From NCBI GenBank assembly GCA_045640765.1, contig JAZUFP010000020.1, positions 1 to 24,118 of the forward strand: 24,118 nt of DNA. Reading direction: 5' to 3'. The notes beneath the pieces were generated by a model. The model worked only from the letters and a program-made list of their open reading frames with translations. It was not told the DNA's origin and did not search any database. Positions 1 to 21,751 of the stretch are shown piece after piece. The first letter of the stretch is position 1. Every line of letters starts with the position of its first letter. This stretch comes from Acutalibacteraceae bacterium (GTDB taxonomy: Bacteria > Bacillota > Clostridia > Oscillospirales > Acutalibacteraceae). The translations under genes were made by a program, and so were the position numbers.

Positions 1-1718
1 GAGATCTCTTTTTCCTCAAACGAAACGTTGACGGCAAGTACCGCCAGGTGACCGTTCGAGGAACGGACGCAGGACGTGCAGATCCCGTCACCGGCGGAAC
101 CGGCAAAAACTTTGGAATCCATATCGCCCAAATAGCGGGTCATCAATGTGATCGCGTAATAATCGGGATACGGTTCTTTACAGCGGTGAATATTCGGCAT
201 GGTGCCGCAGCGATGATCGCCGTCCACAAAGGTGTCGAATCCGTCCCAATGGTTATTCGGCCACTGCTGATCGAAGATCGTCCACAGCAGTGAACTGTTG
301 ACACCGGCGTTCATAAAGCCCGCCTGCGCCGACGCAAAAGAAAGACCTTTGCGCGGCAGTTCGTTCGGATCCAGCAGACGTGTGTTATACTCGTCAAACC
401 AGAAGTCCTTATCCGCGGGGACCGGCTTTTTGAAACTTTCGGCGGTATGATACCAGAAATAGTATTCACCCAGCGGATCGTTCTTTCCGCCGAAGCCGTA
501 CTCATAAACCAGCCACGCGGTCGAGCCGACCACCTCAAAATCGCCGTTGTCCAGCAGTTCGCGGTCATCCCCGACCTTTTTCAGCGATGCCAGATCGTAA
601 TAACCGACGGTACCCTCTTCGGGGATGTCGTGATAAATGCCGAAATAACCAAACGTATGATCGCCCGAATGGAAGCGCATTTTATACTGTTTCCATTCGT
701 CCGACATTTCGGTGGCGGGGATATTGACCACGCTGTTGTCGGTCAGATAACTGACCCCGTCTCCGCCGGCGGTAATGGTGCGGATCAAACCTTTTTCGCA
801 CCACGGCACGTGAAACGCGCCGAGGAAAAAGCCGCGCTTGTCATTGACCGGATCGGTAAGACCGGTTGCCTTTGCCCATACCGACGCTTCATATTCGGTA
901 TTCGGTTCCAGGTCCACACGCTGCTGTGCGCGGAAGCCCGGTATCGGGAAACGCAGGCAGTAGTCGCCGGAGAACGCTTCCCATTCGGGTTGTTCGGAAT
1001 AGTCCACGTCCAGATAGCAGTGGGTCGTGAAAACATCCAGTTCATCGTGGAGATTTTCCACGCACCATTCCAGCATTTCGGGACGGTCACTTGCCGGTTG
1101 TCCGGCGTTGGGGCCGACCAGTTTCACCAGAGAGCGCAAGCCGTCTTCCGTCAAATGACGGTGCGCCGCCCGGGCGCACAATCCGTACGGTTCAAATTCG
1201 CTTTCAAACCCGAAAATCCGTTTCAGTTCACGCGTACTGCCGTTCGGTTCGGTAAACAGAAAAATGTACTTGATATTATCAAATCCGCGTTTGACGATGA
1301 TTTCGTTGACGGCTTCGCTGACATAGGCACCGAAGCGATCCGCCGCAACGGCGGGATCGTCGTCGCGGAACGGATATTCATTCGCCAGGAAAATATTATA
1401 CGCCAGCCACCAGCCGAGATTCAGCGCGACTGTGACATTGCGCTTTTTCATTTCTTCCAGCCAGCGATAGACCCCCCGCACGTTCGCGTCTTCCCAATTC
1501 CATTTTCCGTTTTCATAGGGAGGAAATTCAAAATAAGTACGGGCGATCTTCAAACCGGATTTTGTTACGCGCTCCATCTCGATCTCGCATTCTTCGGGCG
1601 TATAGGCGCGTCCGGAATCATCGGGACAAAACGCGAAAGCGTGATACACCGCGTTGACGCCCAGGAAATGTTCCTGGACGCAGCGGGTATTATCTATTTC
1701 TAAATTCACTTTGGTCAA
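1..1718 (-). CDS. Putative cytoplasmic clan GH-A-like glycoside hydrolase with internal CBM4/9-like insertion; 3' end beyond the window; absent from the ORF track
   Basis: Hand translation gives an open frame from TTG at 1718 (GAGGT RBS at 1733-1729) to the window edge, 572 codons: MTKVNLEIDNTRCVQEHFLGVNAVYHAF...LFTEP (Glu codon 1250-1248)...KLVGPN...DVFTTHCY...FWFDEYN (Glu codon 392-390)...LLWTIFDQQWP...VLAVNVSFEEKEI. Motifs are colinear with the 710-aa neighbour. No signal peptide. The + strand ORFs 447..1703 and 48..293 are its in-register antisense shadows. Confidence 0.85.
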   Translation of the reverse strand, partial: MTKVNLEIDNTRCVQEHFLGVNAVYHAFAFCPDDSGRAYTPEECEIEMERVTKSGLKIARTYFEFPPYENGKWNWEDANVRGVYRWLEEMKKRNVTVALNLGWWLAYNIFLANEYPFRDDDPAVAADRFGAYVSEAVNEIIVKRGFDNIKYIFLFTEPNGSTRELKRIFGFESEFEPYGLCARAAHRHLTEDGLRSLVKLVGPNAGQPASDRPEMLEWCVENLHDELDVFTTHCYLDVDYSEQPEWEAFSGDYCLRFPIPGFRAQQRVDLEPNTEYEASVWAKATGLTDPVNDKRGFFLGAFHVPWCEKGLIRTITAGGDGVSYLTDNSVVNIPATEMSDEWKQYKMRFHSGDHTFGYFGIYHDIPEEGTVGYYDLASLKKVGDDRELLDNGDFEVVGSTAWLVYEYGFGGKNDPLGEYYFWYHTAESFKKPVPADKDFWFDEYNTRLLDPNELPRKGLSFASAQAGFMNAGVNSSLLWTIFDQQWPNNHWDGFDTFVDGDHRCGTMPNIHRCKEPYPDYYAITLMTRYLGDMDSKVFAGSAGDGICTSCVRSSNGHLAVLAVNVSFEEKEI

Positions 1719-1741
1719 AATAATCTCAACCTCTATACAAA

Positions 1742-3874
1742 TCAGTTATCCACGTGATATTCCGTCGAATAGATCGCGAAAGAAAGGGCCGGAACAACAT
1801 CACGCAATTCGTTCTTCGTTCCCTTGAAGCAGATGTCGGCGTCGATCATGGTCGCGCTGCTGTCCGCCATAACCTCAAACGGGTTATAAAGGTAACGGTA
1901 CATCTTCACACCGCCGAGACTCTTGGAAAGGGTGATATCCACCGGACGTTCGGTGACGTTGGTATTTACAACGATGATCGAATGGTAGGTCTTGCCCTTT
2001 TTCTGATATTCGACCATGGAAAGGTTGACGCCGTCGGAACTTTCACCGCAGAATGTCTTAGATCCCATCATGCCGCAGTATTTCGTCAACAGCGTAAAGC
2101 CGTAATACGAAATATACGGAACAGACGATTTACACATGGCAGGTGCCATACCGATAACGTGAATACCGGAAACGAATTCGTCACCGGAACCGTCACGGTA
2201 GGGCCAGACCGTATCAAACAGCTGCCAGGTCAGACCCGTTTCAATACCGCTGTTCATCATCGCGACGGTCGCCTGTGCCAACTGTCCCGGATTCATCGGG
2301 TTTTCGGCAACGATATCGTCGTAATGCTGACGGTTTTCGCCGGTATCGGTATTATAGTTGAATTCATCGAACCACATGGCTTTTCCGGTGGGTTTGATCG
2401 TCTCCACGAACCGGTCGAAATACATCTTATACATAAAATAGTTGTCGTCATAGAACGTCGCGTTCTGAGGCGCGCCGATTCCGGGCCAGTTCGGCAGATA
2501 ATAGTGGAAAGAGTAAACGTCGATGACGTCGTCCGCGTGGTCGATCCACCACTGGATATCGTCTTCCGGCTTCATTTCGGGCTGTTTCCCGGTCACCACA
2601 CCTTTTTCATACGACATGTGGATCGTTCCGCCGAACGCAACATCCGGTCCGACAAACCGGACCTTTTTGCGCATACCGTTCGCTTTGGCCGCCTTGTCCG
2701 CGGCTTTGATGATTACAAGCCACATATCCCAGGTGGTATACAAGCGGGCAGTCAACTTCTGCTTTTTCGTCAGGTTGACCTTTGCCCCGGTCTTGATATC
2801 ATAGAAATCCGGGAAGGCATGGATGTATTTGTAATCTTCATCCATTTCCTTGGAATAGCAGGTTTTGGCGTTACAGACGTAATCCTTTTCCCCGATCTTG
2901 GCCATATACATCGGGACGCCTTTCATCACCGGATTTTTGGCGTAAACCTTGTTTTCGACCGAAATATCCGCGCGATAATTCAATTCCTGACGTTTCTGGG
3001 CGCTGTATTCATAATAAAGCGGCTCGGTCAGGTTGACCGTGTACTGAACGTTGGTATATCCGTATTTATCAATGATCCATTTCAGCGATTCGGCATACCA
3101 GTAGGCGTAACCGTTGACAACGTCACTGAACCGGCAACCGAAAAACGGATTGTTTACGCTGATCGAAGTATGTTCATAATACAGATCGCCGGCGCTCCAG
3201 CCCATGTTCAGCGCAACAACGATATTGCGTTTCTTCAACGCATCAAGCCACTGATACAGATACATCATGTTCGGATTTTTCTTGCTGAAATCCCACGAAG
3301 ACGGATCGTTCACATTTCCGCCGACATAGGCGTAGGACGGTTCAAAATAGGAGCGGATCAGCGAAATATCCATTTCGTCAATACGTTTCAGTTCACGTTC
3401 CAGCATTTTCTGGTTATAGGAACGCCCCAGTTTGGTAGCATCCGGAATGAAAATGAATCCCTGATAAACCGAATTGAGTCCCAGCCAGTTGTTGGAAACC
3501 GCCTTGCTGTTATTGATCGAAAGCGAAACCACCTCATCGGGCAAGTAACCCGTTTCGGTAGTATTCTGCGGTTCTTTTTTCGGCTTCTCGTCCGGAAGAT
3601 CTTTATCTTTTTTTATGGGAACTTTTTCGGTAATTTCTTCGGTGACCTCTTTTTCTACCAGTTTCTTGCGCTCGTAAGGTACGGTAACTTCGTTGACCTC
3701 GCCTTTTTTGGTAGTGGTAACGGTCTTTTCGGTATAGCTTTTTTCGGCAACGACAACATTGTTTTTGCCCTGCGAAGCGGTAGTACCGTCATCCGAAGAA
3801 GAACCGGTCGTGCAGGCGATCGCTGAAAAAACGATGAGCGCGGCTAATACCAGTGCGGTTAATCTGCTTTTCAT
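1742..3874 (-). CDS. Lipoprotein, clan GH-A-like (GH39/GH30/GH51-like architecture) glycoside hydrolase, 710 aa
   Basis: Signal peptide with lipobox AIA-C21, then a Thr/Lys/Glu-rich spacer. Barrel motifs NLTEP (Glu284, codon 3025-3023), RFVGPD, DVYSFHYY, MWFDEFN (Glu504, codon 2365-2363). C-terminal beta-sandwich-like tail (HSIIVVNTNVTERPVDITL). ATGA overlap with the upstream gene. Exact family not assignable by eye. Confidence 0.75.
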   Translation of the reverse strand: MKSRLTALVLAALIVFSAIACTTGSSSDDGTTASQGKNNVVVAEKSYTEKTVTTTKKGEVNEVTVPYERKKLVEKEVTEEITEKVPIKKDKDLPDEKPKKEPQNTTETGYLPDEVVSLSINNSKAVSNNWLGLNSVYQGFIFIPDATKLGRSYNQKMLERELKRIDEMDISLIRSYFEPSYAYVGGNVNDPSSWDFSKKNPNMMYLYQWLDALKKRNIVVALNMGWSAGDLYYEHTSISVNNPFFGCRFSDVVNGYAYWYAESLKWIIDKYGYTNVQYTVNLTEPLYYEYSAQKRQELNYRADISVENKVYAKNPVMKGVPMYMAKIGEKDYVCNAKTCYSKEMDEDYKYIHAFPDFYDIKTGAKVNLTKKQKLTARLYTTWDMWLVIIKAADKAAKANGMRKKVRFVGPDVAFGGTIHMSYEKGVVTGKQPEMKPEDDIQWWIDHADDVIDVYSFHYYLPNWPGIGAPQNATFYDDNYFMYKMYFDRFVETIKPTGKAMWFDEFNYNTDTGENRQHYDDIVAENPMNPGQLAQATVAMMNSGIETGLTWQLFDTVWPYRDGSGDEFVSGIHVIGMAPAMCKSSVPYISYYGFTLLTKYCGMMGSKTFCGESSDGVNLSMVEYQKKGKTYHSIIVVNTNVTERPVDITLSKSLGGVKMYRYLYNPFEVMADSSATMIDADICFKGTKNELRDVVPALSFAIYSTEYHVDN

Positions 3875-6800
3875 TCCTCTGCACCCCCCGATTTTTTCTT
3901 TTTACCCAAAAACAGAAGCAGGAAAAATGCCGCCAGACTTAAAACCAAAACGATGACCGCGGCGATACAGATGTAGGCACCGGCAGAAAAATCACCGCCG
4001 GATTCGGTCACGGTCTTGCGGACACGCTTGCCGTATTCGGGCTTATACGTGACTGCGTCTTCCACAACTTCTTCCCATGTGGTCAGACTGGTATCAGTGC
4101 GGTAACAGGTTTCCGGTACCAGTTCCCGGACTGTTTCAGTATTCGTTTTGGTTACGGTTTTATAAGTCGTGGGTGTTTCGGGCGCGGGATCTTCCTCTTC
4201 TTCGATATTTTGCTGATGAATGATATCAAAGCTGAGTGCCGGCAAGACCATCAGTTTGGCCGTCCTTTTCTCAACTACACTCAACGAAGAGATGCCTTGC
4301 GAAGCAAAATAAAGATCGACATCGTCAATGCGGATATTGCCCTTTGTACCGGTGATGAGCAGGAATCCCTCATCGTAAATACCGGAACCGAAAGCAATAT
4401 TGACACGGTGCCACTTGCCGTCACGCCCGAACGGAATATTTCCGTCTTCGGTCAGGAACAGATCCTTAAAGTTCTTTCCGCCCGCGTTACCGTAAACGCC
4501 GACCGTAATATCGCTGTCGGGATCGGCCTTGACCCACAAAGACAGAATATAGTTGTTGTTGGTGACCAGCGGGAATCTGCGGAAATAGGTAGAGCCATCC
4601 AGCGCGTCGCCGCTGATCTGCATCACGTGCTTATTGGCCTTACGACCGCTGTCGCCCGGATCGGAAACGACCTTCATACCGTCGGAAAGCGGAGCCCAGT
4701 TGGCTTTGGTGATCTTGGATTCAAAATCATAGTTATCCAACTGCGAATACAGATCTTCGCAGTACAGACTGTCTTCGTAGTTCGCGACTTCGGTTACCGT
4801 AAAGTTGTCAAACAGCACGTCACAACCGTAATAAAGCGGAATAACAAAGTAGGCAATGTCCGGAACGACCTCTTCGGTAACGATGGAAAGGGTCATCGTC
4901 CGCCACTGATGGTCGTTGATCTTGCTGACAAAGGTCTTCATCGACCAGCTGCCCGCCATACCGTAGTTGGTACCCAGCGCGCAATAATGGTCAAACGTGT
5001 ATTCATCATCCGGGTTGGTATCGTGATTCAGAATCATATACCGGACGTTGATGTTATATTCCGAGTGACTGCGCAGCGCGATACCGTGGATATCGTAATT
5101 GAGGGCTCTGTCCTGACGCGGTTCGTTGCTGTAACCGTACAGGAAACCTTTGGATTCGCCGATCGTCGAAGCAAGTTTCGGATAGAGCTTCTTGATTTCG
5201 GCGTTGGTAACACGGCGGAAGCCGGTCGTTGACGGATAGATCGTCGGATCTTCCTCATCAAACGTCAAAACTCTTTCTTTGACCGGTGTCGGCGAAACGA
5301 CCTCACGCAAAGTGAAATTGTCAAACAGCAATTCCTGACCGCCGTATACACCGACCCTGAAATAGTTCGCCGCGGGGACCATCTTCGTGGTCGAGAAATA
5401 GATCGTTTTGGAGCTCCAACCCTTTTCAACGTTGTTATAGTAGTCATAATGACTTTTTACACTGTTGGTTTCGGGTTCCAGATGTTGTGTGCCGAACGCG
5501 AACGCATATACCGCGCCGGTCGCTTTTTTGGAGCAGTAATCAAACGTAAGGGCATAATTCGTATTGGTTTTCAGTTGAATGTTTTTCAGTTCAACAAAGG
5601 CAACATCGGCACTGACGGCGTCTGAATTTTCGATATACAGATAACCGCCGCTTCCGTTATCCTGGAAGCCCTTTTTGATGATTTCGGACTTGGTCAGACG
5701 GGCACTGTGTTCGGTCATAGCGACGTATTTGGTCGAATCCGCCTTTTCAAAATCGAGCACGCCGATCTCTTCGTTGGTTTCTTCCAGATATTTGGTGACC
5801 GACAGGTCGTCGATATATACTGCCGCGCCTGCGGAAATGTTGAAGATCATCCAGTCATCCGACGCCGATCCGGTGGCGTTTTTGCCGATTTCAAACAAGA
5901 AAGACGCGGTTTTCCACTCGCCTTCAACGCCGTTTCTGACCGTCAGGATCGCCTCGCTTGATCCGGCCAAAACAATGTTCGGATCGGTACCGACCGTAAA
6001 CAACGTGTTGCCGGATGCCGATTCACGCGCCTGATAGTAGGGAAACTCCACTTCATACTTGCAGTTGGTTTCCGGTTTGATTTTACCGTTCACGGCACCT
6101 AACTTACCGGTCTTCGCGGCATTTTTATCCGCGACAGCGCGCAGGTAACCCATGGACAGTTTCGGTTCGGTGACCTTGACCATTTTCAGTTTGGAGGGAG
6201 CGTCCTTGCTGATCGGGACCGAACTGTCGTCCAGTTTCTGAACAACGGTAGACGCGGTAAAAGGTACGTTCGCGACGGTACCGCCGAATTCGTAATCGGA
6301 AATGACGATATCGTCAATATAGACCGACGTTCCCGGTGCTGCCTTGATCGCCAGACCGTCGGCAAGATCGGAAAGCTTTGCGATATAAGACGCTTTTTCC
6401 CAGCGTTCGGCCGTGCGGTTGGAACCGGCTTTGACCGTGCCGGCAAGACCGCAGCTTTCATTGGATCCGTCTTTGACGGCGTAAAGCGAGAATAACTCAT
6501 CACTGTCGGCGGCGGACTTCATATAATAGTTGAAAGAAACACGGTAATCGATATCCGGTTTCAAGTTGTTGAATTCTTCGTCGATCACCTTGACCGTATC
6601 GGATGAAGCATGGACCGCGTAATCAGTCGCAGGAGGAACTTCGCCATAAGCGACTTCCGGACCGGCCTCGATGCTGAAAGAACCTTTCGGCACCGGAGCG
6701 ACCTTTTCATTGTCACCCACCGATTCGTCCCAGCAGACATAAGACATGGATTCGTCTTCAAAGTCGATCTGATAAACAATATTACCTTTCAGATCGGTAA

Positions 6801-8859
6801 CGGTCATGTTATCAATATAGACTTCGGTACCGCACCAGACCTTGACACCCATGGTGTTGTAATAAACGTTATCACTGGAATCCCCGCACACAAACGGTTG
6901 ATTGATACCGTAAGAGCCGCCCTTTACCTGGAACCACTGCCCGTACGGCTGTTGTCCCGTACCACTGCCCATTCCGTAGGTGCGGCGGTCGGTACGGAAG
7001 ACTTCACAGTACTGGCCGTTACCGCTGCCGACACGCATTGTCGGGAAGTTGTTGTGCATTTCACCGCCGTCATAAGCAGCGGTATAACCGTTGTCGAAAT
7101 AGTAGAGATCCGCCGTGAAAAGGTACTTCTGACCGACAACTAATTTTCCGGGCAGATCCGGTGTGTCAAAGCGGATATCCAAAACGTGATCCATTTTGGA
7201 GCGTATCGGGGTATTGATATGCAGTAATCTGTTTTTCGCCAGACCCGCACGCACCGAACGGCGATTCATTTTTTCGCCGACCAGGTTATAGGAAACGTCA
7301 TACGTTCCCGTATTGATCCGTTCGATCTTACAGGTCACGACCGCCTTGTTCGTAGCGGCATCAATGATCTGAATATTGTCGAAATACGCGATCAGTCCCT
7401 GATAGGCGCGGATGCACAGATCGAACCCGGCCGGCTGGAATTCCGGTGTGGTAAAGGTCTGCCATTCGTCCGTACCCAGATCGCCGATATTCCGGGTGCT
7501 TATTATCTTTGAACCGAATTCGATTTCAAAGTTTTTGGTGTTTTTATCTTTTCCGATCAGCGTTTTGGCGTTTCTGCCGATAAAGGCATCCATGCTGATC
7601 TTATATTTTTTATTGGCATCCAGTTTTTCGGAAAGGTTGAAATCATTGATATAGGTATAGGACTTTGCCGATTTGTTATTGATGACCGAAGCCACCCAGT
7701 CCTTTACAACGTAAACGTCCGGACCGTTTTCAATGGCATAAATACTGCGTTCCGTATAGGAAGCGACCGTGATGGCATAATCGTTGCTGAAATCAGCCGC
7801 CAGCACAACGCCACCGGTCACGGCATCGACAAATTCCACGTTATCGATATACAGCGAAACCCCGGCGCCGACTTCGATCGTCCAATAGGTCGTCTGACGG
7901 TTCTTGGCGGTGAATTCGGTTTCGTAGGTGTACCACGTTTCAAATTTCGGCTGATTTGCCGTCAGATCAAAGGAAGTGTTCAGACTGCCCTTGTCACTGG
8001 TAGCGTTATTCGCGATACGAAGTTTTACTTCTTCGGTACTGACCCCTTTTCCGTTGTTTTCCAGATAGTAATAATCGAAACGGAGTTTATAATTCTTGTT
8101 CACCGTCAGTTTTTTGGAAAGTGCCGTTGATTCATCGTCACCCTGCTTGAAACTGAATGCGAAATAATGACTGTTTTTTCCGCCGTTGATATTATCCGGG
8201 CATTTAATGCGGAACAGACGGTTGTCCTTACGGACCTGCGCCGTTTCATTTTTCAATACCCAGTCAAAATACAGGTAATTGCCCGCCGCGGTCTCAGCGT
8301 CGATTTTATCGGTCTTACCGTTGCCGTCGATCGTTTCCAGATTGTCGAAAAGCACTTCGACGCCGGCCACCAGGGAAAAATTCAGCGTAACATTCTTTGT
8401 TTTCGGAATGACGTCGGTTTCATAATGATACCATTTTTCGACTTCGGTATACACCGTCATCTTCATCTGCTGGGAAGAAACGGTCGTCGTTCCGTCCGCG
8501 ATTTCGGTCGTGAAGATCAGGTTGCCTTCCGACGGCATTTCGGAAATCAAAAAGTCAAAACCGACCGTATTCATTTCCCCGGCGATGACCGGGCAGTTCA
8601 AAACGATCTGCTGCGTACTTTCGGAAGTATTCTGACCGAACAGATAACCGTCCTGTTGCGGCAAACCGTCAAGACTTAACGCGGAATCCGAAGAAAACCC
8701 GAAATCGTCAGGATCTTCAAAATCCAGTTCCTGACGGGTATAGGTGTCGGCGGAAACCGGCGAGGAAAGCAAACTGAACGGAAAATAAGCCGCCAGAATA
8801 GCCACAATACACAGCACTGTCAACCCGATTTTCGGAAAACGCTGTATTCTTGTTTTCAT
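3871..8859 (-). CDS. Large membrane-anchored surface protein with about nine tandem CBM4/9-like (galactose-binding-like) beta-sandwich modules, 1662 aa
   Basis: Start moved from 8904 to ATG 8859 (AAGGAG RBS 8870-8865). SPase I-type signal peptide (SPVSA|DT). Nine repeats of Y-x-(L/I/V)-x-F ... W ... (Y/L)(I/F)D(N/D)(hydrophobic) about 500 nt apart. Pro/Thr/Glu spacer, one C-terminal TM helix (AYICIAAVIVLVLSLAAFFLLLFLG) and a KKKK stop-transfer. Confidence 0.8.
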   Translation of the reverse strand: MKTRIQRFPKIGLTVLCIVAILAAYFPFSLLSSPVSADTYTRQELDFEDPDDFGFSSDSALSLDGLPQQDGYLFGQNTSESTQQIVLNCPVIAGEMNTVGFDFLISEMPSEGNLIFTTEIADGTTTVSSQQMKMTVYTEVEKWYHYETDVIPKTKNVTLNFSLVAGVEVLFDNLETIDGNGKTDKIDAETAAGNYLYFDWVLKNETAQVRKDNRLFRIKCPDNINGGKNSHYFAFSFKQGDDESTALSKKLTVNKNYKLRFDYYYLENNGKGVSTEEVKLRIANNATSDKGSLNTSFDLTANQPKFETWYTYETEFTAKNRQTTYWTIEVGAGVSLYIDNVEFVDAVTGGVVLAADFSNDYAITVASYTERSIYAIENGPDVYVVKDWVASVINNKSAKSYTYINDFNLSEKLDANKKYKISMDAFIGRNAKTLIGKDKNTKNFEIEFGSKIISTRNIGDLGTDEWQTFTTPEFQPAGFDLCIRAYQGLIAYFDNIQIIDAATNKAVVTCKIERINTGTYDVSYNLVGEKMNRRSVRAGLAKNRLLHINTPIRSKMDHVLDIRFDTPDLPGKLVVGQKYLFTADLYYFDNGYTAAYDGGEMHNNFPTMRVGSGNGQYCEVFRTDRRTYGMGSGTGQQPYGQWFQVKGGSYGINQPFVCGDSSDNVYYNTMGVKVWCGTEVYIDNMTVTDLKGNIVYQIDFEDESMSYVCWDESVGDNEKVAPVPKGSFSIEAGPEVAYGEVPPATDYAVHASSDTVKVIDEEFNNLKPDIDYRVSFNYYMKSAADSDELFSLYAVKDGSNESCGLAGTVKAGSNRTAERWEKASYIAKLSDLADGLAIKAAPGTSVYIDDIVISDYEFGGTVANVPFTASTVVQKLDDSSVPISKDAPSKLKMVKVTEPKLSMGYLRAVADKNAAKTGKLGAVNGKIKPETNCKYEVEFPYYQARESASGNTLFTVGTDPNIVLAGSSEAILTVRNGVEGEWKTASFLFEIGKNATGSASDDWMIFNISAGAAVYIDDLSVTKYLEETNEEIGVLDFEKADSTKYVAMTEHSARLTKSEIIKKGFQDNGSGGYLYIENSDAVSADVAFVELKNIQLKTNTNYALTFDYCSKKATGAVYAFAFGTQHLEPETNSVKSHYDYYNNVEKGWSSKTIYFSTTKMVPAANYFRVGVYGGQELLFDNFTLREVVSPTPVKERVLTFDEEDPTIYPSTTGFRRVTNAEIKKLYPKLASTIGESKGFLYGYSNEPRQDRALNYDIHGIALRSHSEYNINVRYMILNHDTNPDDEYTFDHYCALGTNYGMAGSWSMKTFVSKINDHQWRTMTLSIVTEEVVPDIAYFVIPLYYGCDVLFDNFTVTEVANYEDSLYCEDLYSQLDNYDFESKITKANWAPLSDGMKVVSDPGDSGRKANKHVMQISGDALDGSTYFRRFPLVTNNNYILSLWVKADPDSDITVGVYGNAGGKNFKDLFLTEDGNIPFGRDGKWHRVNIAFGSGIYDEGFLLITGTKGNIRIDDVDLYFASQGISSLSVVEKRTAKLMVLPALSFDIIHQQNIEEEEDPAPETPTTYKTVTKTNTETVRELVPETCYRTDTSLTTWEEVVEDAVTYKPEYGKRVRKTVTESGGDFSAGAYICIAAVIVLVLSLAAFFLLLFLGKKKKSGGAEE

Positions 8860-8873
8860 AATTACTCCTTTAT

Positions 8874-8898
8874 TTCCCGCCGTCAGCGACGGCGGGAA
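8874..8898 (-). other. Intercistronic GC-rich stem-loop after the SBP gene (probable mRNA stabilising/processing element)
   Basis: Perfect 11-bp inverted repeat TTCCCGCCGTC-agc-GACGGCGGGAA. On the operon strand it is followed by ATAAAGGAG (the next RBS), not by a U-tract. Confidence 0.65.
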
Positions 8899-8910
8899 TA
8901 ACAAATGCTA

Positions 8911-10449
8911 TTATTTTGCCTGCGAAACCATCTGATTGATCTTGTTGATGCTGATGTCGTAACTGCTCTTATATTTTTCGAGCGTTGCTTTGACCTGACC
9001 GACGTCACTCTTACAGATCAACTGCGACATCGGCGAATAGTCGACCAGACCGGCACCGTCCAGAACGCCGCGGGTATACGGGATCAGTTTCTTCATCTGA
9101 GAAACCTTGCCGTAGGTGTCTTTCAGGTTGGCGTTGATGAAATTGTCCGCCTTCGGATAGTTACGCGGATCCAGGAAGTATTTTAAGAATTCGATCGCGC
9201 CTTCCGGATTTTTGGCACCCTGCAGGATACCGAACGCGGAAGCGTCCATCAAAGCGACCTGCTGTTTGCCCTTGGGCATCGGGAACGGAACGGCATCGAT
9301 TTCGTCGGTCATTTCGTCGAAACGGGAGTTGGAATCCTTGAACATCTGATAAGCGATGCAGGAGAACATTGCCGCCTTGCCGGCCTTGAAAGTATCGGGT
9401 CCGTAAGGCAGAGTCTTATCCATATAACCCTTATCGGTCATGGTCAGGAAGAAGGTCAGGGAGTCGCTTAAAGCTTTGCTGCCAATGTTGGAGGTGAACT
9501 TGCTGGTATTGGTATCATAGCTGATAAAGTCCTTGCCGCCTGTAGTCGTCCAGTAGGAAATGGACTGTGCCCACAGATTGACGTAACCGTAAACGCTCTT
9601 GTCTTTCTTGGTGGTCGCCTTCGCGCACTCCATGAAAGTATCCCAGTTCCAGTTGCCTTCCTGCCAGTACTGACGGGGCGTTTTGACCTTCATCTTGTTA
9701 AAGATGGTCTTGTTATAATACATAACAACATATTCGGAATAGTTGGAACCGTTGATGTTCATACCGTATCTTTTGCCGTTGATCTTATAGGCAGACGCGA
9801 TCTCGTCATCCCAGTCAGATGATTTATAGTTCGAGAATTTTTCCAGCGGCTGCATCATTTTGATCGGGCGGCCCGGGAAACAGGTATAGTTGAACATCGC
9901 AACGTCATAACCTTCCTTACCGGCCATGGAAGAGGCCAGTAATTCGGTATAGGGAGAAGCGTCGTTCGAGGAGAATTTATAATCGACCTTCATGCCGGTA
10001 TCATTTTCAAACTTTTTGATGACGCTCTTTTCAGTATTGGTAAAATCGTGCCACCAAAGCAGTTTAACGGTCGTTCCTTTTAACTTTTCGCTCAGGCCAT
10101 CGTCCAATTGCACTTTGCTGGCAGTACCGTTGCCGGTGATATCGTTGGAAGTGATTTCCTTTTTGCTTTCGGTCGTTTTGGACTCGGTCTTGTTGTCCTT
10201 GCTGTTGTTGCCGCTGCTTTCGACCGTTGTGGAAACAGTCGTATCACCCTTTGTGGTTTTGGAAGTTGTTGAAGAAGTGGTCGTACCGCCTTCGGAAGAT
10301 CCGTTTTCATCGTCCGCTTCATAGAAATCGGTATCCTCAATAATTTCGGTGGTCTTGGTTTCGGCCTTCGGGCCGCATCCCGCGAAGCAAATCAGGCAAA
10401 GTGCCAGTGCCAGCATGATGCACAGTGTACGTTTGATCAATGTTTTCAT
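8911..10449 (-). CDS. Carbohydrate ABC transporter solute-binding lipoprotein (SBP_bac_1-like), 512 aa
   Basis: Start moved from 10521 to ATG 10449 (MKTLIKR; GAAAGGG RBS). Lipobox FAG-C25, Ser/Thr-rich linker, then SBP motifs (TVKLLWW, FENDTGMKV, YYNKTIF, WNWDTF, FKAGKAAM, VPFP, KNPEGAIEFLKY). Tandem stops TAA TAG. Confidence 0.88.
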   Translation of the reverse strand: MKTLIKRTLCIMLALALCLICFAGCGPKAETKTTEIIEDTDFYEADDENGSSEGGTTTSSTTSKTTKGDTTVSTTVESSGNNSKDNKTESKTTESKKEITSNDITGNGTASKVQLDDGLSEKLKGTTVKLLWWHDFTNTEKSVIKKFENDTGMKVDYKFSSNDASPYTELLASSMAGKEGYDVAMFNYTCFPGRPIKMMQPLEKFSNYKSSDWDDEIASAYKINGKRYGMNINGSNYSEYVVMYYNKTIFNKMKVKTPRQYWQEGNWNWDTFMECAKATTKKDKSVYGYVNLWAQSISYWTTTGGKDFISYDTNTSKFTSNIGSKALSDSLTFFLTMTDKGYMDKTLPYGPDTFKAGKAAMFSCIAYQMFKDSNSRFDEMTDEIDAVPFPMPKGKQQVALMDASAFGILQGAKNPEGAIEFLKYFLDPRNYPKADNFINANLKDTYGKVSQMKKLIPYTRGVLDGAGLVDYSPMSQLICKSDVGQVKATLEKYKSSYDISINKINQMVSQAK

Positions 10450-10510
10450 GTCAAAAACCCTTTCTGAAATAAATAATTTTTGATTTATATACTCGGAACA
10501 AAGTTCCGTT

Positions 10511-11479
10511 TTATCCGACAATACCGACCCGGTCGATACTCTTGATGAAGTTTTTCTGAACGATGAGGTAGAAGATCAGCACCGGGAGGATAAACAACAG
10601 GCACGCCGCCATGCTGGTACCGATCTGCGAAGAAACGTTCTGATCCAGTTTGATCAACTCGAAAATGCGGTCGATCGCGATAGACATCGGGTAGTTGCTG
10701 TTGAAATAAAGCCCGGTCAGGTAATATTCGTTCCAGTGCCAGATGATCGACAGAATGGAAACCGTCAGAATCGCGACACCGGAAGACGGGACGATGATCT
10801 GAACAAAGGTCTTGATGGGACCCGCGCCGTCGATCCACGCGGCTTCTTCCAGTTCTTTCGGGATTCCCTTTAAGAACTGAATGTAGATCATGATAAACAA
10901 ACCGGATTGATACCCGACACCGAAAATGGACGGCAGATAAAACGTGAACGGTGTATTGATCAGATTCAGCGTCAGATCTTTGCCGACCAGTTTACCGATC
11001 AGTTTCGTGATCCCGAAGAAATCGAAATAGCGGTAATTTACATAAGACGGAAGCATGGTAATGCGAACGGGCACGAGGATCAGCAAAATCAGCAGTGCAT
11101 ACATAACTTTCCGTTCGGGATATTTGAATCGGGCAAAACTGTACGCGGCGACCCCGCAGGTGGCGACCTCCATCAGCGCGCTGACCACCGGGATCAGCAA
11201 GGTGCGCAGGAAGGTGATCGGATAATCCATCACGCGGAACGCGTCCGCGAAGTTCTGCCAGTGTACTTTGGACGGGATCCAGACAACGCTGGAATTGATG
11301 AAGTCCGACTGGGGTTTCAATGAATTCGCAATGACCTGAAACAGCGGTGACATGACCGTGTAACCGACGGCGACCAGCAAAAACAGCCGGAGCAGCCGGT
11401 ACGCGATACTGAAAATACGCTGTTTGGTCTGTTTGGTGATCTGAATGGAGGAAGCGTTGATGTTCATGATATTTTTCAT
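10511..11479 (-). CDS. Carbohydrate ABC transporter permease (MalG-like), pair 2
   Basis: Multiple hydrophobic segments; AAYSFARFKYPERK; EAA loop GIPKELEEAAWIDGAG; IWHWNEYY; AAGGGGG RBS. Confidence 0.92.
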   Translation of the reverse strand: MKNIMNINASSIQITKQTKQRIFSIAYRLLRLFLLVAVGYTVMSPLFQVIANSLKPQSDFINSSVVWIPSKVHWQNFADAFRVMDYPITFLRTLLIPVVSALMEVATCGVAAYSFARFKYPERKVMYALLILLILVPVRITMLPSYVNYRYFDFFGITKLIGKLVGKDLTLNLINTPFTFYLPSIFGVGYQSGLFIMIYIQFLKGIPKELEEAAWIDGAGPIKTFVQIIVPSSGVAILTVSILSIIWHWNEYYLTGLYFNSNYPMSIAIDRIFELIKLDQNVSSQIGTSMAACLLFILPVLIFYLIVQKNFIKSIDRVGIVG

Positions 11480-11491
11480 CGTATCGCCCCC

Positions 11492-12409
11492 TTAATTCCA
11501 ACGGCGCAGGAAAACGCGCTGGTAAATGAGCAGGATCAGACCGCCGACAGCGCCGACAATGATGAAATACAGCCACAGCGCCGCCGCGCTTTGATCGTAC
11601 AGACTGTTTTTGCCGACAAAATCGTACGCCTGCTTCATAACGGGGTTATCGAAAGCCGTGATCTGATCCACCATCGTGTAAATAAAGACCAGCAGGATCA
11701 CGTTGCCGAGCATCGGGAACGTGACGTACCAGAATTCTTCCCACGAAGTGGCGCCCTCGATCTCGGACACTTCATAAAGTTGTTCCGGAATGGACTGCAT
11801 ACCGGCGACAAACAGCAGGATCTGAATACCGCAGCTCCAGATCAGGTTGAATACGTTGGTAATATAATCGTTCAAAACCAGCGTCACCTTATCGGGAAGC
11901 CCCAGTTTCAAAAGGATCGCGCTGAAACGCATGGCCGATTCGTCACTGCCGATTGCGGTACTCAATGCCGAGCCGTCACTGCCGAGGTTGTTGCCGGACA
12001 TGACGTATTTCATGACGACACCCGTCGCAATAATGACCGGCAGGAAGAAAACCGCGCGGGCAAGCAGTCTGCCGTGAAATTTCTGGTTGAGAATGACCGC
12101 GAAAATCAGACTTAACGCCACGATGATCGGCAGAGAGGTCAGGAAACCGGTGACCGCCGACCGAAGATTATTGATATAATCGGGGTCTTCGTTCAGCAGA
12201 TACTTAAAATGCGTCAAGCCGGTAAACTTCAACGAAACGCCGTTCATCAGACTGAAATCAGAGAAAGCATATGCGACAGACGATATCAGCGGGATAATGA
12301 AAAACAGCAGAATTCCGATAAACCACGGCACGATAAACATTCTGCCGTAGCGAACCTTCAAACGCTCGATCCCTTTTGTCTTTTGGAGTTTAGAAGACAT
12401 TTTTCGCAT
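11492..12409 (-). CDS. Carbohydrate ABC transporter permease (MalF-like), pair 2
   Basis: FIVPWFIGILLFF; RAVFFLPVII; variant EAA loop SIPEQLYEVSEIEGATSWEEFWYVTFP. RBS spacing favours ATG at 12400 (MSSK) over 12409. Confidence 0.92.
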   Translation of the reverse strand: MRKMSSKLQKTKGIERLKVRYGRMFIVPWFIGILLFFIIPLISSVAYAFSDFSLMNGVSLKFTGLTHFKYLLNEDPDYINNLRSAVTGFLTSLPIIVALSLIFAVILNQKFHGRLLARAVFFLPVIIATGVVMKYVMSGNNLGSDGSALSTAIGSDESAMRFSAILLKLGLPDKVTLVLNDYITNVFNLIWSCGIQILLFVAGMQSIPEQLYEVSEIEGATSWEEFWYVTFPMLGNVILLVFIYTMVDQITAFDNPVMKQAYDFVGKNSLYDQSAAALWLYFIIVGAVGGLILLIYQRVFLRRWN

Positions 12410-12423
12410 TCCTTTCCGTAGAT

Positions 12424-14643
12424 TTAACGATAAACAAAGCTGCCGGCTTTTACGGTGCCGAACCCGGAATAATCCGTTTTACTGCGATTGGTCACCAGTA
12501 CGGTACCGTCCGAAAACGTGGTTTTCGTCACATTTTCCGCCAATATTTCATGTTTTTCAATCGTGCTGTCCGCCACGCGGACAAGCAGATCTTTCGCTTC
12601 TTTCACGTACGCGCCGAGCGTTTCCTTCTGTCCGTCGAAGACCGCCCCGGCAAATACGCTTTGCCCATGTACGAAAGATTTATTATAATGATCGGCCACC
12701 GTGAACAGCAAGCCGCTGCCCGTTTCGACCGAACTTAAAAACGTATCACGCCCGTTGCCCGCCAGCGTCAGCGACGGACCGGAAAGGGATACGGAGCCCT
12801 TGAAAACCATTTGATAAAACGGGACGTCCACATCCAGCGCGTCGAATCCGGTGGATTCGGACGGAGCCGCGAGAACGTGATCGGATTGTGCCGCCGCGTA
12901 CGCGAAGGATTTTTGCGTCATGACCGAAGTTTCCTTGCGTGCCGCTTTCAGCGCCGCGGAAATATCCGCGTCCATATTTCCTTTGTTATAAGCGGACGGA
13001 TCACGGTAATCGGAATAGGCGATCTGTCCGATGGTCGAGAAGGAAGCGCCGTTCAGCGATTCATCCTTGATCTTATCAGTGACTTTTTGCGTGATCGTAC
13101 CGATCTGACCGCGTGCCAGCAGGTGATAAACACCCTTTTCGGTATCGCCGTTCCCCATGGCGGTAGCGTATTTCAGGAAGTGGGACGCCATAGCGGAATT
13201 GACCGCTTTCGCGCCGTCGGACGCAAAAGAAACGCCCAGTCCGGATTTGGAGAATTGAAGCACATCAAAATCCGGATATATGTCGGGGAATTGCTTTTGC
13301 AGGTCTTTCAGATCACCGAAAGAACCGAGCGATCCGTCAATTTTCAAGCCGCCCGCGATCTTACCGATATTGATACCGGATGCGCCGAAGCCCTTTAATT
13401 GAAGGACCGGTTGAAGTCCGGTCAGATCGGAAACGGATTTCGCGATCTTGCCGGCCTGCTCGACCGTTGTCGCCGACGCGACCGACGTATACGGAATACC
13501 CAGGAAAGAACGGTCAATTTCGGCACCGCCGACCGCCTGCAAATAAAGCGGCCGGGTGGAAACGTCGGATTTCATCCCTTCGTTTTCCCGTAAATACTGA
13601 CGGTACCGTTTCGCCATGCCGGAATATCCGTCTGATACCGGGTAATAACCGACCGTGCAGGCGGTATTGACATACCCGTCGGAGTAGGAATCGTAAACTT
13701 TTTTACTGCCGTAGGAAGTCTGGATCTTTTCGGTGTTGAATCCGCGCAGCGTAAAGGTCGGATATACCGAAGAATAACCGATCTCATCGCCGGCGATCGC
13801 CTGAATATCACAGCAGGCGGCACCCTGCTCGATCACGCCGAGCAACGCGTTTTTCCCGTCGTTCACGCCGAAAACAGGCATGGTCGCACCGATTTCGTTC
13901 GATGTGATCGCGTCCTGCAATTCGGCGTAGTCCGAACCGAAAAGTTCTTCTTTATACGCGCGGAAGCCGGTGCTTCGCACGTCGGGATACATTAGTGCGC
14001 CGCAACCGGACGGAACAAACAGATATTTATCTTTGTCCGGCTTTTTTGTTGTTGCCACGGCGGCAAGATACGGCGCGATATCGATACTGTACAGTTGATA
14101 CTGCCCTTCCAGGATGTGGGCGGTATCGACCGATACTGCGAAATGGTCGTCATACAAACGGTATACCAGCGGAATGACCATTTCGATCTTATCCAGGAAA
14201 TAGCAAACCAGCAGACCGTCATCCACCTTTCTGGCAGACAGCCGCCCTTCTTCGGTCAGGACTTTCTGACCGGAATAGGTGGAAAGCTGTTGATTGGCGC
14301 CCGGCAGATAGGAAACGCTGATGGGCGTGAACAACAGTTCACCGTCTCCCACGGCGGGATCGGCGTCCGGACGCTTGCAATAGTCCGCCGGGGTGGTGGA
14401 CCAGACCTGCCCGCTTTCCTTATCAGTAAAGCTGACGACCGCGCGTTCCGCGTCCCAGGACAGGGAAAAACGATCGTTTTCCGTCACGACGCCCGAATCG
14501 ACCGTCGTGATTTTCAGGTTTGACTGATATTCCGAAAATTCCAGCGGTTCTATATCACCGCAGGCGGCAAACACAAAAATCATTACCGCGCCCAGCAGAA
14601 ACGCCGCTGCCCGTCTGATTCCATTACGAACCGCTTTTGTCAT
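12424..14643 (-). CDS. DUF5696-like lipoprotein (putative glycosidase-clan TIM-barrel protein), 739 aa
   Basis: Lipobox FAA-C; motifs VWSTTP, YLFVPSGCGALM, MPVFG, YSGMAKRYRQYL, VPFYQMVFKG and TTFSDGTVLVTN, which I recall as typical of DUF5696 proteins. Position between the NHL/Yip1 gene and a permease pair. ATGA overlap with the upstream gene. Confidence 0.65.
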   Translation of the reverse strand: MTKAVRNGIRRAAAFLLGAVMIFVFAACGDIEPLEFSEYQSNLKITTVDSGVVTENDRFSLSWDAERAVVSFTDKESGQVWSTTPADYCKRPDADPAVGDGELLFTPISVSYLPGANQQLSTYSGQKVLTEEGRLSARKVDDGLLVCYFLDKIEMVIPLVYRLYDDHFAVSVDTAHILEGQYQLYSIDIAPYLAAVATTKKPDKDKYLFVPSGCGALMYPDVRSTGFRAYKEELFGSDYAELQDAITSNEIGATMPVFGVNDGKNALLGVIEQGAACCDIQAIAGDEIGYSSVYPTFTLRGFNTEKIQTSYGSKKVYDSYSDGYVNTACTVGYYPVSDGYSGMAKRYRQYLRENEGMKSDVSTRPLYLQAVGGAEIDRSFLGIPYTSVASATTVEQAGKIAKSVSDLTGLQPVLQLKGFGASGINIGKIAGGLKIDGSLGSFGDLKDLQKQFPDIYPDFDVLQFSKSGLGVSFASDGAKAVNSAMASHFLKYATAMGNGDTEKGVYHLLARGQIGTITQKVTDKIKDESLNGASFSTIGQIAYSDYRDPSAYNKGNMDADISAALKAARKETSVMTQKSFAYAAAQSDHVLAAPSESTGFDALDVDVPFYQMVFKGSVSLSGPSLTLAGNGRDTFLSSVETGSGLLFTVADHYNKSFVHGQSVFAGAVFDGQKETLGAYVKEAKDLLVRVADSTIEKHEILAENVTKTTFSDGTVLVTNRSKTDYSGFGTVKAGSFVYR

Positions 14644-21505: not shown

Positions 21506-21696
21506 GGCAAACTCCTTTTTCGTCAATAAAAATACGGCAAAACGCACACCGACGTCGTTTTTTTTGAAATCGGTATGCTGCGCGTATCGTTTTTTCAGTT
21601 GTGGATCATTCCCCCGAAACAGCGAAAGCCAAAAATCGGAAATCCATAATAAAATCGGGGGTTTCGGGCATTTTTCTGCCGAAATTTTACGGAAAA

Positions 21697-21710
21697 TATT
21701 ATCGTTCATA
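21697..21710 (-). promoter_or_regulatory. Candidate LacI-family operator TATGAACGATAATA
   Basis: 14-bp imperfect palindrome with central CG, matching the family pattern T-G-x-x-A-x-C-G-x-T-x-x-C-A except a symmetric G>A / C>T change. Centred about +13 from the predicted transcription start (about 21716). Confidence 0.5.
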
Positions 21711-21722
21711 TCCGTTGTGTTT

Positions 21723-21751
21723 ATTATATCATTTCCGTCCCGATTTGTCAA
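21723..21751 (-). promoter_or_regulatory. Sigma-A/sigma-70 promoter of the carbohydrate operon
   Basis: Exact consensus TTGACA (21751-21746), 17-nt spacer, TATAAT (21728-21723), with extended -10 TGn. Confidence 0.9.

Follow-up and report, generated by a model that had tools for sequence, protein, structure and literature searches.

Enzymes of clan GH-A, a grouping of glycoside hydrolase (GH) families, normally place an Asn immediately before the acid/base Glu, where it hydrogen-bonds the 2-OH of the sugar in subsite −1; GH51, GH79 and GH5 enzymes, for example, have Asn-Glu at the acid/base. In GH30, and likewise in GH39, whose members include β-xylosidases and α-L-iduronidase, a (β/α)8 barrel is joined to a side β-sandwich, with one catalytic Glu after β4 and the other after β7. 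Here we describe two adjacent minus-strand genes at the left end of a 24,118-nucleotide contig from an Acutalibacteraceae bacterium (JAZUFP010000020.1; "the window" denotes this whole stretch), whose products resemble these enzymes but carry Thr in place of the Asn. We consider it probable that the two genes encode paralogous retaining clan GH-A glycoside hydrolases of a family that lies outside Pfam, NCBIfam, the PDB and NCBI annotation and has GH30 and GH39 as its nearest relatives, a reading built on the paralogy of the two proteins, the conservation of the family, its fold, the homology of its catalytic positions and its gene context.

The first gene (positions 1742–3874, minus strand, from the list of open reading frames (ORFs) and its translation) encodes a putative lipoprotein of 710 residues, P0001. 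The second (3–1718, minus strand, from the ORF list and the sequence) uses TTG as start codon, with GAGG ahead of it, and encodes the paralogue P0002, which lacks a signal peptide. BLASTP aligned the two proteins at 26% identity over ~610 columns (E 1e-36), and they are clear paralogues. The original prediction, made from the DNA sequence alone, had described a tandem pair with shared colinear motifs, and a regular-expression search found all eight motifs in both proteins and in the same order. Its numbering of the catalytic residues, E284/E504 and E157/E443, is also correct, with LTEP at 282–285 and WFDEFN at 501–506 in P0001, and FTEP at 155–158 and WFDEYN at 440–445 in P0002. Both ORFs were confirmed, but the left-hand gene is incomplete in the window: P0002, ~632 residues at full length, is cut by the contig end at 572 residues, and its missing tail of 53 residues is encoded where another contig of this assembly, C58, begins. 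This tail is 98% identical to residues 580–632 of the orthologue at L007 (6418–8313), a 96%-identical orthologous locus from an Acutalibacteraceae metagenome-assembled genome (MAG).

Residues 110–710 of P0001 were modelled with AlphaFold from a 79-sequence family alignment, yielding an eight-stranded (β/α)8 barrel with a predicted local distance difference test score (pLDDT) of 91.8 and a predicted template modelling score (pTM) of 0.93; this model supersedes an earlier, mediocre one built from six sequences (pLDDT 68.8). The Thr283-Glu284-Pro285 motif (3020–3028, minus strand), placed by the model, the family alignment and hhalign, directly follows β4 (model strand 167–171). Asp503-Glu504-Phe505-Asn506 (2357–2368, minus strand; family alignment and hhalign) lies at the end of β7, with D-E terminating model strand 390–396, and His457-Tyr458-Tyr459 (2498–2506, minus strand; family alignment) at the end of β6. 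From these model positions and alignments, Glu284 is the predicted acid/base and Glu504 the predicted nucleophile. The counterparts in P0002, located by motif search and the family alignment, are Thr156-Glu157-Pro158 (1245–1253, minus strand), with Glu157 as predicted acid/base, and Asp442-Glu443-Tyr444-Asn445 (384–395, minus strand), with Glu443 as predicted nucleophile. Eight residues, E284, D503, E504, D452, H457, Y459, R174 and W550, are invariant in the 79-sequence alignment; in the model, Arg174 lies on β2 and Trp550 after β8. The likeness to clan GH-A that had been proposed is borne out by the barrel and by the Glu residues after β4 and β7, which align with the catalytic Glu residues of GH30 and GH39, whereas the Asn before the acid/base Glu is Thr in both window proteins.

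Beyond the barrel, the C-terminal region of P0001 (residues 605–703; 1766–2062, minus strand; model strands 496–594) forms a β-sandwich of the GH30 side-domain type. It was recognised both in the model and by a profile match in the PDB (E 1.2e-7), and PF17189 matched it weakly in 8 of 79 family members. An N-terminal β-strand (residues 116–130; 3485–3529, minus strand; model strand 7–21, pLDDT above 95) can be read as part of the same sandwich, in keeping with GH30/GH39 architecture. Structural alignments to known enzymes cover model residues 6–596.

The best structural match is GH30 XynC from Bacillus subtilis (3kl3_D; also 3kl0), with Z 28.4 and a root-mean-square deviation of 2.9 Å over 347 residues at 14% identity. 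GH30 AcXbh30A (7n6h) is second (Z 27.8), followed by structures of GH59, GH79, GH39, GH5, GH51 and GH164 (Z 23–25). Foldseek gave E values of about 1e-16 at 9–12% identity; by Foldseek and structural alignment, no solved structure exceeded 14% identity and none stood out as belonging to the same family. The resemblance to GH30 thus comprises the barrel, the side β-sandwich and the Glu residues after β4 and β7, whereas identity is only 11–14%, QNEP in GH30 is FTEP in the family described here, and the nucleophile context D-E-[YF]-N is not present in GH30. The window proteins also contain large insertions, after β4 in P0001 and between β6 and β7 in P0002. The GH30 catalytic models PF02055 and PF14587 were matched by none of the 79 members at E ≤ 0.01 and by neither window protein.

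We also compared profiles with hhalign, using small alignments of GH30 (9) and GH39 (8) sequences from genomes of the same order. The match to GH39 had a probability of 97.5% (E 6.4e-12, 376 columns, 16% identity), and that to GH30 a probability of 97.4% (E 1.5e-11, about 370 columns). In both comparisons FTEP lay over (Q)NEP and the Glu of D-E over the nucleophile Glu, and with GH39, which has the same architecture, the acid/base, H-x-Y and nucleophile motifs were all in register. The column aligned with the Thr is Asn in 9/9 GH30 and 7/8 GH39 sequences. GH39 differs in that its Pfam model, PF01229, matched one of the 79 members (E 9.5e-4, below the cut-off) and neither window protein. For calibration, the lipoprotein clade was aligned with the cytoplasmic clade, giving E 7e-106, and GH30 with GH39, giving E 0.018 with these small alignments. 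With E 7e-106 inside the family against ~1e-11 to either GH30 or GH39, the group is, as judged from sequence profiles, one coherent family at clan distance from both.

In sequence, resemblance to other clan members was seen on the nucleophile side. The GH51 nucleophile motif, F-D-E-W-N, resembles the D-E-aromatic-N context found here, and the likeness that the original prediction had seen in this region is reflected in weak sequence matches to GH5, GH51 and GH79. In a PDB search, HYY and WFDEFN of P0001 aligned with the nucleophile region of the GH5 mannosidase Man5A (E 0.02), and short HMMER matches in the PDB to GH51, GH79 and GH5 (E 4e-4 to 3e-3) fell near the strands that carry H-x-Y and the nucleophile. 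At the profile level, hhalign gave a probability of 14% for GH51, with the acid/base region out of register, and no family-level profile match was found for GH51, GH79 or GH5.

An exhaustive profile search through 1.84 billion cluster representatives recovered 711 at E ≤ 1e-3, of which 242 reached E ≤ 1e-30, which rules out the tiny family implied by the five or six relatives returned by a word-indexed protein search. P0001 had no Pfam match and P0002 a sub-threshold CBM_4_9 match alone; an NCBIfam scan of both proteins returned nothing meaningful, and single-sequence PDB searches with them reached E 0.02–0.04 at best. When 79 diverse members were scanned against Pfam (E ≤ 0.01), eight families were matched by any member, among them, weakly, Glyco_hydro_30C (8 members), CBM_4_9 (7), Glyco_hydro_cc (2), GH39 (1) and GH5 (1), and none of the glycosidase catalytic-domain models was convincingly reached. 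Core members, those with Thr-Glu-Pro (T-E-P), are all "hypothetical protein" from MAGs of uncultured Clostridia wherever the source is named. The cultured carriers seen are distant Asn-bearing relatives only, in Paenibacillus and Cohnella, and the relative in cultured Paenibacillus auburnensis is itself a "hypothetical protein" in RefSeq. Neighbours in AlphaFold DB and the ESM Atlas were unnamed or "hypothetical" Bacillota clusters first, then GH39, GH5, GH30 and GH79/51 clusters; GH39 clusters also occur among protein-language-model neighbours. Literature searches on the T-E-P/N-E-P motif, on Asn or Thr at this position in clan GH-A, and on GH30-like, GH39-like or new GH families found nothing relevant. 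One candidate family, GH159, was discarded because its fold is a five-bladed β-propeller (PMC9278983). The sequence family is unrecognised by Pfam, NCBIfam, the PDB and NCBI annotation; the suggestion of an unclassified family holds in the sense that none of these databases claims it, and "unclassified" applies to the databases tested.

The distribution of the family is patchy, with matches in 15/301 sampled genomes of the window's taxonomic family and 5/401 of a phylum sample, both including this genome, and carrier genomes usually hold several matches each. Two members show domain fusions of their own: in P0037 (934 aa) the family domain is fused to a GH127-type β-L-arabinofuranosidase catalytic domain, and in P0050 (1000 aa) to a 3-keto-disaccharide-hydrolase-like domain.

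That Thr is a conserved feature of the family, as had been suggested from the two paralogues, is now seen across many sequences. At residue 283 the 79-sequence alignment holds Thr in 75 members, Ser in two, and Ile and Cys in one each, with no Asn. Over 194 aligned family proteins, the same column, which lies exactly at the Asn position of GH30 and GH39, holds Thr 176 times and Asn 8 times; the others have Val (4), Cys (2), Ser (2), Ile (1) or Leu (1). When the family tree was rooted on distant relatives from Paenibacillus and Cohnella that carry Asn, four in-family N-E-P proteins (P0084, P0096, P0141 and P0153) fell into one nested group that also includes a single T-E-P protein, and the V-E-P proteins lay close together. 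Three of the four, P0084, P0096 and P0141, are giant multidomain proteins of 1960–3563 aa. Judging from the tree, Thr probably dates from the base of the family and gave way to other residues now and then, the nested clade reverting to Asn. Since Val, Cys, Ser, Ile and Leu are tolerated and Asn appears to have returned, the Thr hydroxyl is not indispensable; this agrees better with loss of the O2 contact than with Thr supplying an essential new one.

The two genes belong to an apparent glycan-capture and import operon. A single string of minus-strand genes fills the left 21.7 kb of the window, accompanied by a divergently oriented regulator gene of LacI type. In transcription order the string encodes a large solute-binding protein, a permease, a 287-aa protein with no Pfam match, an NHL/Yip1 membrane protein and a DUF5696 protein, and then two permeases, a solute-binding protein, a 1677-aa surface protein, the lipoprotein enzyme and the cytoplasmic enzyme. 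The second solute-binding protein and its two ATP-binding cassette (ABC) permeases (8911–12409, minus strand) were identified by Pfam SBP_bac_1 and BPD_transp_1. The surface-protein gene (3871–8904, minus strand; ORF list, Pfam and loci comparison) is directly upstream of the lipoprotein gene, whose start ATG overlaps its stop codon (ATGA), suggesting translational coupling. The surface protein itself has no significant Pfam domain; its counterparts elsewhere match CBM_4_9 and Flg_new_2.

Related loci were located with a 6-sequence alignment, and 24 genome loci were compared for neighbours. The order of permeases, solute-binding protein, giant CBM_4_9/Flg_new protein, lipoprotein enzyme and cytoplasmic enzyme recurs in other loci, and giant proteins homologous to the surface protein precede family members in most loci examined. 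In the clade nearest to the window's lipoprotein (41–42% identity), a GH29 α-L-fucosidase, often with L-fucose isomerase (FucI), lies between the two enzymes, and the cassette then carries a GH36-type (Raffinose_syn) protein, DUF4886, an AraC regulator and a Melibiase-type protein. In the literature searched, DUF4886 came up only in a review of SGNH hydrolases (PMC9487903). GH29 adjoins family genes in 11/24 genome loci. Among Acutalibacteraceae MAG loci L009–L021, for instance L012:9740-20214 and L015:9842-20124, we observed GH29 and L-fucose isomerase between two family genes, and at L022:7792-11196 the cassette goes on into a glycyl-radical enzyme, DUF4867 and a radical S-adenosylmethionine (radical-SAM) activase; the cassette of L009–L022 has the look of a full pathway that leads from a fucosylated glycan into fucose catabolism. 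The assembly of the window holds a further member on another contig, C167 (L075:37-3753), a third paralogue of at least 1238 aa with a C-terminally fused GDSL/SGNH esterase, an architecture shared by P0012. This gene is followed by a divergent AraC regulator (3818–4726), a 1121-aa protein with no Pfam match (4951–8316), a GH36-like (Raffinose_syn) gene (8610–10778) and a GH29 α-L-fucosidase (10772–11629).

We propose that catalysis would proceed by double displacement at the C-terminal face of the barrel, with Glu284 (Glu157 in P0002) as acid/base and Glu504 (Glu443) as nucleophile. The anchored lipoprotein enzyme, at the cell surface beside the giant carbohydrate-binding protein, may cut captured polysaccharide to oligosaccharides, which the adjacent ABC transporter would import. 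P0002, which lacks a signal peptide and has a CBM4/9-like insert, could finish the backbone inside the cell, while fucosidase, α-galactosidase-type enzymes and esterases would strip the decorations. Hydrolase activity, retention of configuration, the split into endo and exo action and the class of substrate are all inferred; for the last of these, the recurrent GH29, FucI, GH36-type and SGNH esterase neighbours point to a β-linked glycan decorated with fucose, α-galactose and probably O-acetyl groups. Because we recognised no further endo-acting glycosidase in the operons examined, the family proteins may be the backbone-cleaving step.

Several observations weigh against this picture. The placing of Glu284 and Glu504 face to face rests on strand positions and profile alignments, and in the window's own locus, as in the 96%-identical L007, no GH29 or GH36 gene lies beside the enzyme pair. 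Other clades of the family stand beside, or are fused to, GH2, GH3, GH78, GH127, CE15, CE4, β-helix enzymes, dockerins and CBM4_9; given these differing neighbours, specificity probably varies across the family, and the link to fucose may be valid for some clades only. The GH29-bearing loci, moreover, come from related species and are not independent. A further objection concerns novelty: the family may already be numbered in CAZy, as a newer clan GH-A family with neither a Pfam model nor a solved structure. Such numbering would be compatible with absence from Pfam, NCBIfam and the PDB, and several recent CAZy families have no Pfam model. We nevertheless think it rather unlikely, because each CAZy family starts from a characterised enzyme and no such enzyme turned up here, the literature on the motif being equally silent; the named T-E-P members are without exception hypothetical proteins of uncultured Clostridia, with cultured carriers confined to the distant Asn-bearing relatives, and no solved structure comes above 14% identity. 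A core family with no cultured or characterised member argues against a prior listing.

The same comparisons bear on whether the proteins form a very divergent subfamily of GH30, or of GH39, and not a separate family. The two best structural matches, at Z 27–28, are GH30 enzymes, sequence similarity to GH30 is seen in the C-terminal sandwich (E 1.2e-7), and hhalign gives a probability of ~97% against both families. Yet the GH30 catalytic models are absent from the matches of the 79 members and PF01229 is present in a single one (E 9.5e-4), the profile similarity of ~1e-11 is equally weak to both families as against 7e-106 within the group, and identity stays at 11–16% with a different acid/base motif; we regard membership of either family as improbable. 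More improbable still is that these are catalytically altered barrels, namely transglycosylases, phosphorylases or carbohydrate-binding proteins in which the loss of Asn marks changed chemistry. A residue conserved in the compared GH30 and GH39 sequences has indeed been replaced. However, the two catalytic Glu residues, like the accompanying Arg, His, Tyr and Trp, do not vary among the 79 diverse members. The genes share catabolic import operons with genes for exo-glycosidases and sugar catabolism, and one copy is located outside the cell, where a supply of sugar phosphates is not to be expected. A bolder form of the hydrolase reading would make these proteins the founding members of a new clan GH-A family in which the O2-binding Asn was lost because the −1 subsite accepts a C2-modified sugar, tentatively a 2-O-fucosylated galactose, a 2-O-acetylated residue or a 2-acetamido sugar. 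The original prediction had likewise supposed an unusual C2 substituent or sugar; this is somewhat weakened because the position tolerates other residues and has reverted to Asn, and we hold it to be doubtful. Were it true, the backbone of a heavily decorated glycan could be cut without prior debranching, and the GH29, GH36-like and SGNH esterase neighbours, together with the esterase fusion, would serve in the clean-up of released decorated oligosaccharides. The N-E-P members P0084, P0096, P0141 and P0153 offer natural controls for the role of the Thr.

Taken as clan GH-A hydrolases of a family missing from these databases, the two proteins belong to hundreds of sequence clusters of apparent glycosidases that are invisible to standard annotation and concentrated in uncultured Clostridia; the loci recovered are mostly from Acutalibacteraceae MAGs labelled goat and horse gut. 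Carbohydrate-use predictions for the host organisms consequently miss a possible backbone-cleaving step. A clan GH-A glycosidase in a Gram-positive glycan-utilisation operon is already familiar, and fold and chemistry are otherwise conventional; what is new is a sizeable family without annotation in the databases tested and the replacement of the conserved Asn. The loss of this Asn throughout the family offers a natural test of a residue that is regarded as nearly universal in clan GH-A, and a characterised member could define a new CAZy family with a new specificity, possibly for fucosylated or acetylated glycans.

Outside the catalytic module, P0001 begins with a signal peptide that runs up to the lipobox Cys21 (..FSAIAC; 3812–3874, minus strand). 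The signal peptide and lipobox (MKSRLTALVLAALIVFSAIAC), followed by Ser/Thr/Gly-rich linker sequence, were read from the sequence, hence the designation as a putative lipoprotein, and Cys21 is kept in the aligned homologues P0003–P0006. The linker, a low-complexity stretch rich in Lys, Glu and Thr (residues 22–112; 3539–3811, minus strand), would connect the lipid anchor to the catalytic module; in alignments it is missing from P0002 and variable among homologues. The insertion after β4 comprises ~115 residues (286–400; 2675–3019, minus strand; from alignments) and includes the motif YVCNAKTCY. It is present at full length only in the closest orthologues, P0003 and P0004, and was modelled by AlphaFold as short strands and helices with mixed confidence. 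The insertion of P0002, ~190 residues between β6 (HCY) and β7 (WFDEYN) (444–1013, minus strand), resembles a CBM4/9-type β-sandwich, as judged from the gap pattern and a weak, sub-threshold PF02018 match at residues 264–286 in the Pfam scan. PF02018 also matched 7 of 79 family members, and one ESM Atlas cluster has CBM_4_9 in 59% of its members.

Other genes of the operon show unusual features. The first solute-binding protein (18629–21751, minus strand), with 1040 aa, is far bigger than a usual ABC binding protein; its N terminus is extended by ~690 residues, in which weak matches of CBM35-like and Golvesin-like type occur. The DUF5696 protein (12424–14643, minus strand) matches PF18952 at E 5e-110. 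No mention of DUF5696 was found in the literature searched, and its PDB matches were all insignificant (E 0.14–0.17), a 3,6-anhydro-D-galactosidase being among them. Contig C58 (L076) continues the operon past the left edge of the window: the P0002 tail at 1–162 is followed by a 93-aa secreted protein, dockerin-like in appearance (311–592), a 1308-aa protein with no Pfam match (635–4561) and a radical-SAM activase-like gene (4661–5428). The same gene order is found in the orthologous locus L007, and the large protein beside the activase could be an unrecognised glycyl-radical-type enzyme.

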